IMG/VR virus record: IMGVR_UViG_3300029886_000148
Origin: a virus
Lineage: Duplodnaviria > Heunggongvirae > Uroviricota > Caudoviricetes
Direction: 5' to 3' (one strand)
Length of the DNA: 37,327 nucleotides
The notes beneath the pieces are model-generated. The model was not told where the DNA came from. It saw nothing but the letters and a program-made list of their open reading frames with translations, and searched no databases. Both the position numbers and the translations under genes were made by a program. Shown here in pieces: positions 28,997 to 29,416 of this stretch (positions are counted from its first letter, which is position 1; every line of letters starts with the position of its first letter).

Positions 28997-29416
28997 ATGG
29001 ACATTCAAGTAGTTCATAAAGTTACTGAATATGATAGAGAAGAACTGTTAGCGGGGCTAAGAAGCTATAATGCTCAGTTTATCGATTTTAGTAAAAATGG
29101 ACAGATCGGTGTCTACTGCAGAAATGAAATCGGAGAGATGGTAGGTGGATTAATTGCGGACAGGAAAGGTCCATGGCTGTGTATTGATTATCTTTGGGTG
29201 AGTGAATCAGCACGGAGTGGCGGTTTGGGTAGCAAACTTATGAGCATGGCTGAGAAAGAAGGTGTGATTAACGGTTGTATTCATGGCCTTGTCGATACAT
29301 TTAGCTTCCAGGCGCTCCCCTTTTATGAAAAACAGGGTTATATCCTTCAAATGTCATTACCTGATTTCCCTAAAGCAGGGGCACAAAGGCACTATCTAAT
29401 AAAAACTAATTTATAG
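28997..29416 (+). CDS. GNAT-family N-acetyltransferase
   Basis: 139 aa; acetyl-CoA-binding-like stretch (...[22 protein letters not shown]...); AT-rich cargo gene. Confidence 0.75.

Follow-up and report, generated by a model that had tools for sequence, protein, structure and literature searches.

A stand-alone GNAT acetyltransferase gene as a small cargo cassette in the cos-proximal hotspot of a 186/P2-like prophage

The TacT, AtaT, KacT and ItaT toxins are GNAT proteins of approximately 160 to 175 aa. AcrVA5 is a prophage-borne GNAT that is encoded in anti-CRISPR loci, and the Bacillus cereus structure 1Y9W was reported as its closest structural neighbour. Brc113, a GNAT-domain protein encoded by an integron cassette, was reported to protect against phages T4 and T7. 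The P2-like phages have a cos-proximal hotspot that was described by Rousset et al. 2022; most of its characterised cargo is anti-phage, and more than one third of the hotspot systems cloned in that study had an anti-phage phenotype. Within phage 186 the stretch from tum to cos is filled by orf97, which carries the annotation 'expression from plasmid blocks 186 infection', and an exclusion phenotype is a feature of both orf97 and the P2 tin/old genes.

The DNA analysed here, a stretch of 37,327 nucleotides that is referred to below as the window, is a 186/P2-like prophage; the CI, CII, Fil, Dam methylase, gpA, DinI, portal and terminase genes are annotated in the identical region of E. coli M7424. 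To map the position of cos, the right end of phage 186 (NC_001317, in which bases 1-19 are annotated as the cos cohesive end) was joined to its left end, and the joined sequence was aligned with the window. As the initial annotation had proposed, the GNAT gene was found to be next to cos, with 328 bp between the cohesive end and the ATG, and a conserved cos block of approximately 155 bp (about 28643-28797) was common to 91 P2-like phage records. The motif CTGT-N8-ACAG had only one match in the whole window, at the position where the SOS promoter p95 of 186 has its annotated LexA site. The orf62 gene, which is kept in all related loci, and the DinI-like gene, which has the same annotation as tum of phage 186, follow this box on the minus strand. 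The GNAT gene is convergent with the DinI-like gene and is directed away from, or against, the phage early and SOS transcription units, in agreement with the original claim that its orientation is opposite to that of the LexA-controlled genes.

The GNAT gene is located in the cos-proximal accessory hotspot, between the gpA/SOS operon and the portal gene Q. The content of its slot varied between phages (Table 1). The slot is empty (approximately 70 bp) in phage vB_EcoM-813R9 and is occupied by an unrelated 225-aa gene in Klebsiella phage KP12; in Salmonella it contains a DUF8087 gene, a 127-aa gene and the GNAT gene. The contents of the slot in 186, vB_EcoM-813R9 and KP12 confirmed that the gene had been correctly placed at the P2 tin/old-equivalent position, which is the cos-proximal slot that holds orf97 in 186 and forms part of the hotspot of Rousset et al. 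2022.

Table 1. Coordinates of the GNAT gene, its cassette and the surrounding features in the window.
Feature	Position	Strand	Basis or detail
GNAT N-acetyltransferase CDS	28997..29416	+	139 aa, ATG start
Mobile cassette (promoter, gene and ~35 nt of 3' sequence)	28865..29452	+	blastn homology limits
Putative sigma-70 promoter	28929..28957	+	-35 TTGAAA 28929-28934, 17-nt spacer, -10 TATAAC 28952-28957
Terminator-like GC-rich hairpin CCTTGGGGGCAAGG then TTTCTTAAT (T-run)	29511..29524	+	consensus scan only
Variable cargo slot, conserved cos block to DinI-like gene	28800..29520	.	content compared across phages
cos cohesive end, 19 nt, GGCGTGGCGGGGATACGAG	28651..28669	-	alignment to joined phage 186 ends
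DinI-like (Tum C-terminal-like) gene	29529..29762	-	Pfam DinI E 1.3e-22; RefSeq WP_001217575.1
62-aa ORF (orf62), first gene of SOS operon	29773..29961	-	RefSeq WP_001154434.1
LexA box CTGT-N8-ACAG, upstream of orf62 and DinI-like gene	30005..30020	.	motif match
gpA	30115-32529		
Portal gene (Q)	25813-26841		

The assignment of the 139-aa product to the GNAT family was upheld. The protein matched the Pfam models Acetyltransf_1 (PF00583, E 4.4e-10, 40.3 bits against a gathering cut-off of 20.7) and Acetyltransf_7 (PF13508, E 2.5e-9, 37.8 bits against a cut-off of 27), as well as PHROG 3810 'acetyltransferase' (E 5e-23), and the identical sequence in E. coli M7424 is the RefSeq protein WP_000354560.1, 'GNAT family N-acetyltransferase'. 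There were 346 homologues at E<=1e-5. When the gene was compared with eight related copies the ORF was intact in all eight and dN/dS was 0.05-0.15, with values of 0.13-0.15 among closely related prophage copies. These values indicated a constrained gene and ruled out a chance ORF; as judged from this comparison of coding sequences, the gene is under strong purifying selection. It was also AT-rich, as first described, with 40.5% GC and a GC3 of 35% compared to 52.6% GC for gpA and 50.8% for the portal gene (backbone approximately 52%). The predicted pI of the protein, 5.9, is not strongly acidic.

The acetyl-CoA motif was identified as R73-S-G-G76-L-G78, which matches the Q/R-x-x-G-x-G/A pattern after strand beta4. 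In an alignment of 113 homologues R73 and G78 were invariant, G76 was at least 90% conserved and Y110, in FYEKQGY, was invariant or near-invariant. The AlphaFold2 model built from this alignment had the GNAT fold (pLDDT 89.1, pTM 0.84), and Foldseek matched it to many solved GNATs with a probability of 1.00 and TM scores of up to 0.80. The encoded protein is a monodomain GNAT with an intact acetyl-CoA motif and is predicted to be catalytically intact.

The limits of the unit were determined by blastn against the Salmonella P2-like, Buttiauxella, Citrobacter youngae, Salmonella s1 and Yokenella copies. DNA homology with other copies extended from 70-135 bp 5' of the ATG to approximately 35 bp past the stop codon, and the left edge varied by copy between 28860 and 28928. 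On these alignments the GNAT unit is a self-contained cassette of approximately 0.55 kb. Its putative promoter has the pattern TTGNNA-17-TATAAC across copies; neither the TTG of the -35 hexamer nor any base of TATAAC varied, and their spacing was constant, among eight copies that each came from a different context, one of these copies having only 71% protein identity. This promoter was absent from the consensus scan because the scan demands a T at position 6 of the -10 hexamer, which is C here. The terminator-like hairpin lies between the convergent GNAT and DinI-like genes. No Rfam RNA element was detected in 28300-30200.

No conserved partner ORF of at least 20 aa was present on either side of the GNAT gene. 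The only nearby plus-strand ORFs of at least 20 aa were a 25-aa TTG ORF, which falls outside the homologous part in several cassette copies, and a 37-aa TTG ORF, which is broken by an indel in strain SC480 and is missing from the non-prophage copies. The description of the gene as stand-alone was consistent with these results and with the occurrence of the cassette by itself in many different contexts. No conserved upstream ORF was found that could be the small antitoxin ORF suggested as worth looking for.

The only candidate for terminal repeats of the cassette was an 11-nt imperfect inverted pair (28832-28842 and 29428-29438), which was rejected because it is too short to be distinguished from chance. 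Separately, a motif of approximately 21 nt, GCTGTGAGCAAGGAACGGACC, was observed at 28872-28892, about 100-125 bp 5' of the ATG. Variants of it were found at the left edge of most of the high-identity cassette copies and also at both edges of the Salmonella DUF8087 module; no obvious hairpin was seen in the motif at 28872-28892. Its role might be regulatory, or it might mark a recombination junction.

The cassette was found in 7 of 5426 complete E. coli genomes; the cos block was present in 1271, and 7 of these 1271 have the GNAT gene. Among the E. coli carriers the cargo between cos and the portal gene varied, being either the HNH/219-aa/nucleotidyltransferase-like operon that is present in the window, a 290-aa hypothetical gene or retron St85 together with IS100. 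The last arrangement was observed in E. coli E300010 (about 4009-6000 of locus L003), where IS100 (istA/istB) is inserted inside the cos block of the GNAT-carrying prophage. The two halves of the block are approximately 2 kb apart, gpA and dam are truncated, and retron St85 is beside the portal gene; this prophage is probably unable to package.

In Salmonella enterica a variant that is approximately 98% identical (P0135) was present in 5276 index blocks and is on that count widespread and persistent. The Salmonella prophages have the gene in the same slot in a collinear arrangement, and their DNA is 95.6% identical to window positions 28865-30200. In these prophages (loci L099-L102 and L107-L109, approximately 4380-6970) cos and the GNAT gene are separated by a 1.2-kb module that comprises the DUF8087 gene and the 127-aa gene (PHROGs 17127 and 26730), and SieB or GmrSD is found beyond cos, on the far side from the GNAT gene. 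The DinI-like gene was split by a frameshift in the Salmonella prophages examined, and the GNAT gene there was intact. Another copy, with 86% identity, was located in the Salmonella sopE2 islet. A tblastn search of a plasmid collection gave large plasmids and small unannotated Salmonella contigs as the top matches.

A more distant copy was carried by a lambdoid phage. In IMG/VR contig 3300011546_000031 (6001-6429 of locus L117) a GNAT gene whose product is 71% identical, and which is preceded by the same promoter hexamers, is located between the Q antiterminator gene and the endolysin/Rz lysis genes. Since this is a classical lambdoid moron site, the location argues for an independent capture of the GNAT family, and the placements considered together indicate that the cassette has been captured repeatedly at the moron sites of unrelated temperate phages, both P2-like and lambdoid.

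Non-phage chromosomal copies were found in another Salmonella, in Citrobacter youngae and in Yokenella, with 83-89% DNA identity over the cassette; their neighbours were MatE and ArsR genes, a hydrolase gene and another GNAT gene, or a rhodanese gene and an HTH gene. A Buttiauxella copy at a contig end fell within the same range of identity. At 55-65% identity, orthologues were syntenic chromosomal genes in Enterobacter, Lelliottia, Leclercia, Scandinavium, Pectobacterium, Pantoea and Providencia and were apparently vertically inherited. The initial annotation had named clear assignment to a housekeeping acetyltransferase subfamily, with no phenotype on expression, as the result that would count against its proposal; these syntenic members go part of the way towards that result, but the protein could be given neither a named subfamily nor a substrate. 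Genes for the regulator TetR and an MFS drug-type exporter adjoin the orthologue in 25 of 71 loci, and genes for TetR and an HlyD-type efflux component do so in 15 of 71. In the Enterobacter-group loci (L043-L095) it was observed, across many species, with a TetR/HlyD-type module upstream and a TetR/14-TMS-type MFS exporter downstream. This TetR-regulated efflux neighbourhood may suggest that the family has a part in handling xenobiotics; as an association with detoxification it is weak, and it may reflect only inherited synteny.

The wider family comprises 3142 clusters at 50% identity (E<=1e-10) and includes many tandem double-GNAT proteins of approximately 290 aa. Tandem two-domain GNATs of approximately 280-310 aa made up about half of the best 150 family representatives (P0164-P0310), and none of the tandem proteins reached a curated NCBIfam cut-off.

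Profile searches, which had been proposed as a means of identifying the GNAT subfamily, did not yield a named one. The only NCBIfam match was PRK03624, with 19.2 bits against a cut-off of 124, and ten relatives also scored far under every cut-off, including those of the AAC, Sat, ArsN and BlmB resistance models. None of the defence families in PADLOC-DB 2.0 matched the GNAT protein at E<=0.01, and the viral structure library returned only unnamed acetyltransferases. The label 'blasticidin S-acetyltransferase' on Pectobacterium homologues had no traceable evidence behind it and was disregarded. The transfer of function from structure was likewise abandoned, as the top PDB matches have no assigned function and the next tier consists of generic GNATs. 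The nearest structures of known function in the Foldseek search were AAC(6')-Ii, the nourseothricin and streptothricin acetyltransferases and ArsN. In the literature searched no functional study of 1Y9W, 2G3A or Atu2258 was found, and the main text of a 2026 paper on the P2/P4 hotspots makes no mention of GNATs.

The explanation that best accommodates these results is that the gene is a moron whose product acts on a small molecule, a detoxification or modification that benefits the lysogen; its probability is tentatively placed a little below an even chance. The cassette would be transcribed in the lysogen from its own putative sigma-70 promoter, independently of the phage regulatory circuit, and the enzyme would move an acetyl group from acetyl-CoA onto a primary amine. 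The likeliest target would be a small, harmful, amine-bearing compound such as an antibiotic, an antimetabolite or a xenobiotic, so that the benefit would be that of a conversion or fitness gene for the lysogen and not one for virion production. A small-molecule target is favoured because the family consists mostly of stable chromosomal genes, unlike the patchy turnover of defence genes, because the chromosomal neighbourhoods lean weakly towards efflux or xenobiotic functions, and because small amines are the substrates of the nearest structures that have a known function. In addition, the cassette moves alone: P2-like prophages that carry it differ in the cargo on the far side of cos (the HNH operon, the 290-aa gene, retron St85, SieB or GmrSD), and the GNAT gene persists beside cos while recognisable defence systems exchange on the other side. 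Against this reading, the cut-off of no NCBIfam or resistance model was reached, no function has been assigned to 1Y9W or 2G3A, which are the closest structures, and the slot is part of a hotspot whose characterised cargo, including orf97 of 186, is mostly anti-phage. Structure alone cannot separate small-molecule from protein acetyltransferases.

The initial annotation had offered toxin, anti-defence and metabolite-modifying roles as options. Of the explanations that compete with a lysogen-benefiting moron, the one that survives best is single-gene anti-phage exclusion or defence, in which GNAT expressed by the lysogen would acetylate a component of the incoming phage, or a host factor that it needs, and so block superinfection. 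This possibility is doubtful but has a real, minor share of the probability. It is consistent with the hotspot in which the gene lies, with the frequency of anti-phage phenotypes among the systems cloned from it, with the presence of orf97 in the same slot of 186 and with the protection reported for the lone GNAT cassette Brc113; the repeated capture of the family by temperate phages points in the same direction, and the P2 hotspot contents given in the supplement of Rousset et al. 2022 include a gene that shares all three Pfam acetyltransferase domains with the GNAT gene. However, neither the GNAT gene nor its HNH neighbour was found among those cloned-system sequences of that supplement that were searched, and no PADLOC model was matched. 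Defence genes are also usually patchy, whereas most members of this family are syntenic chromosomal genes with low turnover, and the GNAT gene stays in place while recognisable defence genes are swapped across cos. The more specific proposal that the lone GNAT is an acetylation-based exclusion or immunity factor of P2/186-like prophages, acting on the incoming phage or on the adjacent SOS/Tum circuit, is unlikely.

A chromosomal GNAT gene might instead have been gained beside cos by illegitimate recombination and be carried as a hitch-hiking passenger with no benefit to phage or lysogen. The rarity of the cassette among E. coli genomes that have the cos block, and the existence of chromosomal copies with high DNA identity, are in keeping with such an origin. 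The intact ORF in all eight copies, the low dN/dS that is maintained even among close prophage copies, the abundance of the Salmonella prophage variant and the independent capture at the lambdoid moron site are not, and a passenger is regarded as improbable.

Slightly less probable again is a protein acetyltransferase for counter-defence or host takeover, whose target would be either a host immune protein, to be inactivated, or the adjacent SOS/induction circuit, to be modulated. Such a role has phage GNAT precedents in AcrVA5 and phiKMV Rac, and the gene does converge on the LexA-controlled DinI/Tum-like operon. Its own conserved putative promoter and its orientation, opposed to phage early and SOS transcription, argue that GNAT expression is not tied to infection or induction. 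Furthermore, the same cassette is found at non-phage chromosomal sites, syntenic chromosomal orthologues are common, and the Salmonella prophages keep the GNAT gene intact despite the frameshift in the DinI-like neighbour.

A tRNA-acetylating toxin of a type II toxin-antitoxin pair (TacT/AtaT/KacT/ItaT type) would fit a small GNAT on a mobile element, but this option was largely set aside as scarcely credible, given that no small ORF is conserved upstream or downstream, that the gene is maintained alone in thousands of genomes and that no TacT/AtaT/KacT-type chain was present among 13 PDB sequence matches (E<=1), 21 profile matches (E<=0.01) or the best 50 Foldseek matches.

Other accessory genes were observed in the window. 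A three-gene AT-rich operon (37% GC) is located at 26894-28562 on the minus strand, between cos and the portal gene. The first gene encodes a 231-aa protein with an N-terminal HNH domain that matches the PADLOC candidate PDC-M68A (E 2e-29) and also matches CBASS Cap5/SAVED-HNH and Shedu-type effectors; the second encodes a 219-aa protein that had no match in Pfam, PADLOC or PHROGs, and the third a 105-aa protein whose matches to Pol-beta-type nucleotidyltransferase models were weak and below threshold. The trio has the look of a defence candidate that is yet to be characterised, and it may hold more interest than the GNAT gene. It occurs without the GNAT gene in E. coli ATCC 8739, and its ATCC 8739 version is an entry in a table of Rousset et al. 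2022, where the genes are given as 'hypothetical genes'; no mention of 'PDC-M68' was found in the literature searched. A functional link between the operon and the GNAT gene was considered and rejected, since the operon is found without the GNAT gene in ATCC 8739 and the GNAT gene is found with four other left-side cargos. Another island of AT-rich DNA (31-34% GC; 16300-18281, plus strand) is inserted between gpV (baseplate spike) and gpS (tail completion) and encodes a Septu-type pair, namely PtuA (442 aa, PADLOC E 1e-139) and the HNH protein PtuB (217 aa, E 2e-99).

The GNAT gene is already annotated and widespread, and an uncharacterised GNAT moron in a known phage cargo hotspot is unsurprising to a specialist. 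If it serves only in the detoxification of small amines it is one more lysogenic-conversion moron, and it would be a useful counter-example to the view that the cargo of the P2 cos hotspot is all anti-phage. Should it instead influence infection by phages, a single enzyme would make up a very compact defence, one that Salmonella prophages already carry widely, and if it acts in exclusion or immunity, acetyl transfer by a lone GNAT would be added to the mechanisms of prophage-encoded immunity. The gene is of modest note because, within a hotspot that is usually read as purely antiviral, it either is likely to have no part in defence or is a single-enzyme defence that has gone unrecognised, and because one small cassette has been captured by both P2-like and lambdoid phages.

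When the GNAT protein was compared with described proteins, the closest were 1Y9W of Bacillus cereus (profile E 7.7e-24, 32% full-length identity) and 2G3A of Agrobacterium tumefaciens (profile E 2.2e-19, 28% full-length identity). Both are approximately 140 aa in length, share the DTFSFQA..FY..GY block and were the top Foldseek matches, and these similarities place them in the same subfamily as the window protein. They differ in that they are chromosomal genes of distant bacteria, solved by structural genomics, whereas the window gene is phage cargo; as neither has an assigned substrate, they provide no functional information. The best-matching structures of known function, AAC(6')-Ii and the streptothricin/nourseothricin acetyltransferases, had TM scores of 0.68-0.80 but only 17-23% identity to the GNAT protein, and no curated resistance cut-off was reached.

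Like the window protein, the TacT, AtaT, KacT and ItaT toxins have the GNAT fold and are encoded on mobile elements; they are paired with an RHH/DUF1778 antitoxin, whereas the window gene has neither an antitoxin nor detectable specific similarity to them. AcrVA5 is likewise a small prophage-borne GNAT, but it is only 92 aa in length and belongs to anti-CRISPR loci, whereas the family of the window protein is mostly chromosomal. No AcrVA5-like chain was found among the PDB sequence matches or the best 50 Foldseek matches, from a PDB library that may lack AcrVA5; there were no Aca-like or Acr genes in the surroundings of the GNAT gene, and no link of the family to CRISPR or another defence target was found. 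Brc113, which can be likened to the window protein by description only, is also a single-gene GNAT on a small mobile cassette. The closest parallels in position are orf97 of 186 and tin/old of P2, which have no sequence relationship to the GNAT gene and are, like it, AT-rich variable cargo in the slot between the replication/SOS genes and cos. In 186, the LexA-controlled promoter p95 drives tum and orf97 together; in contrast, the GNAT gene is on the other strand and has its own putative promoter.
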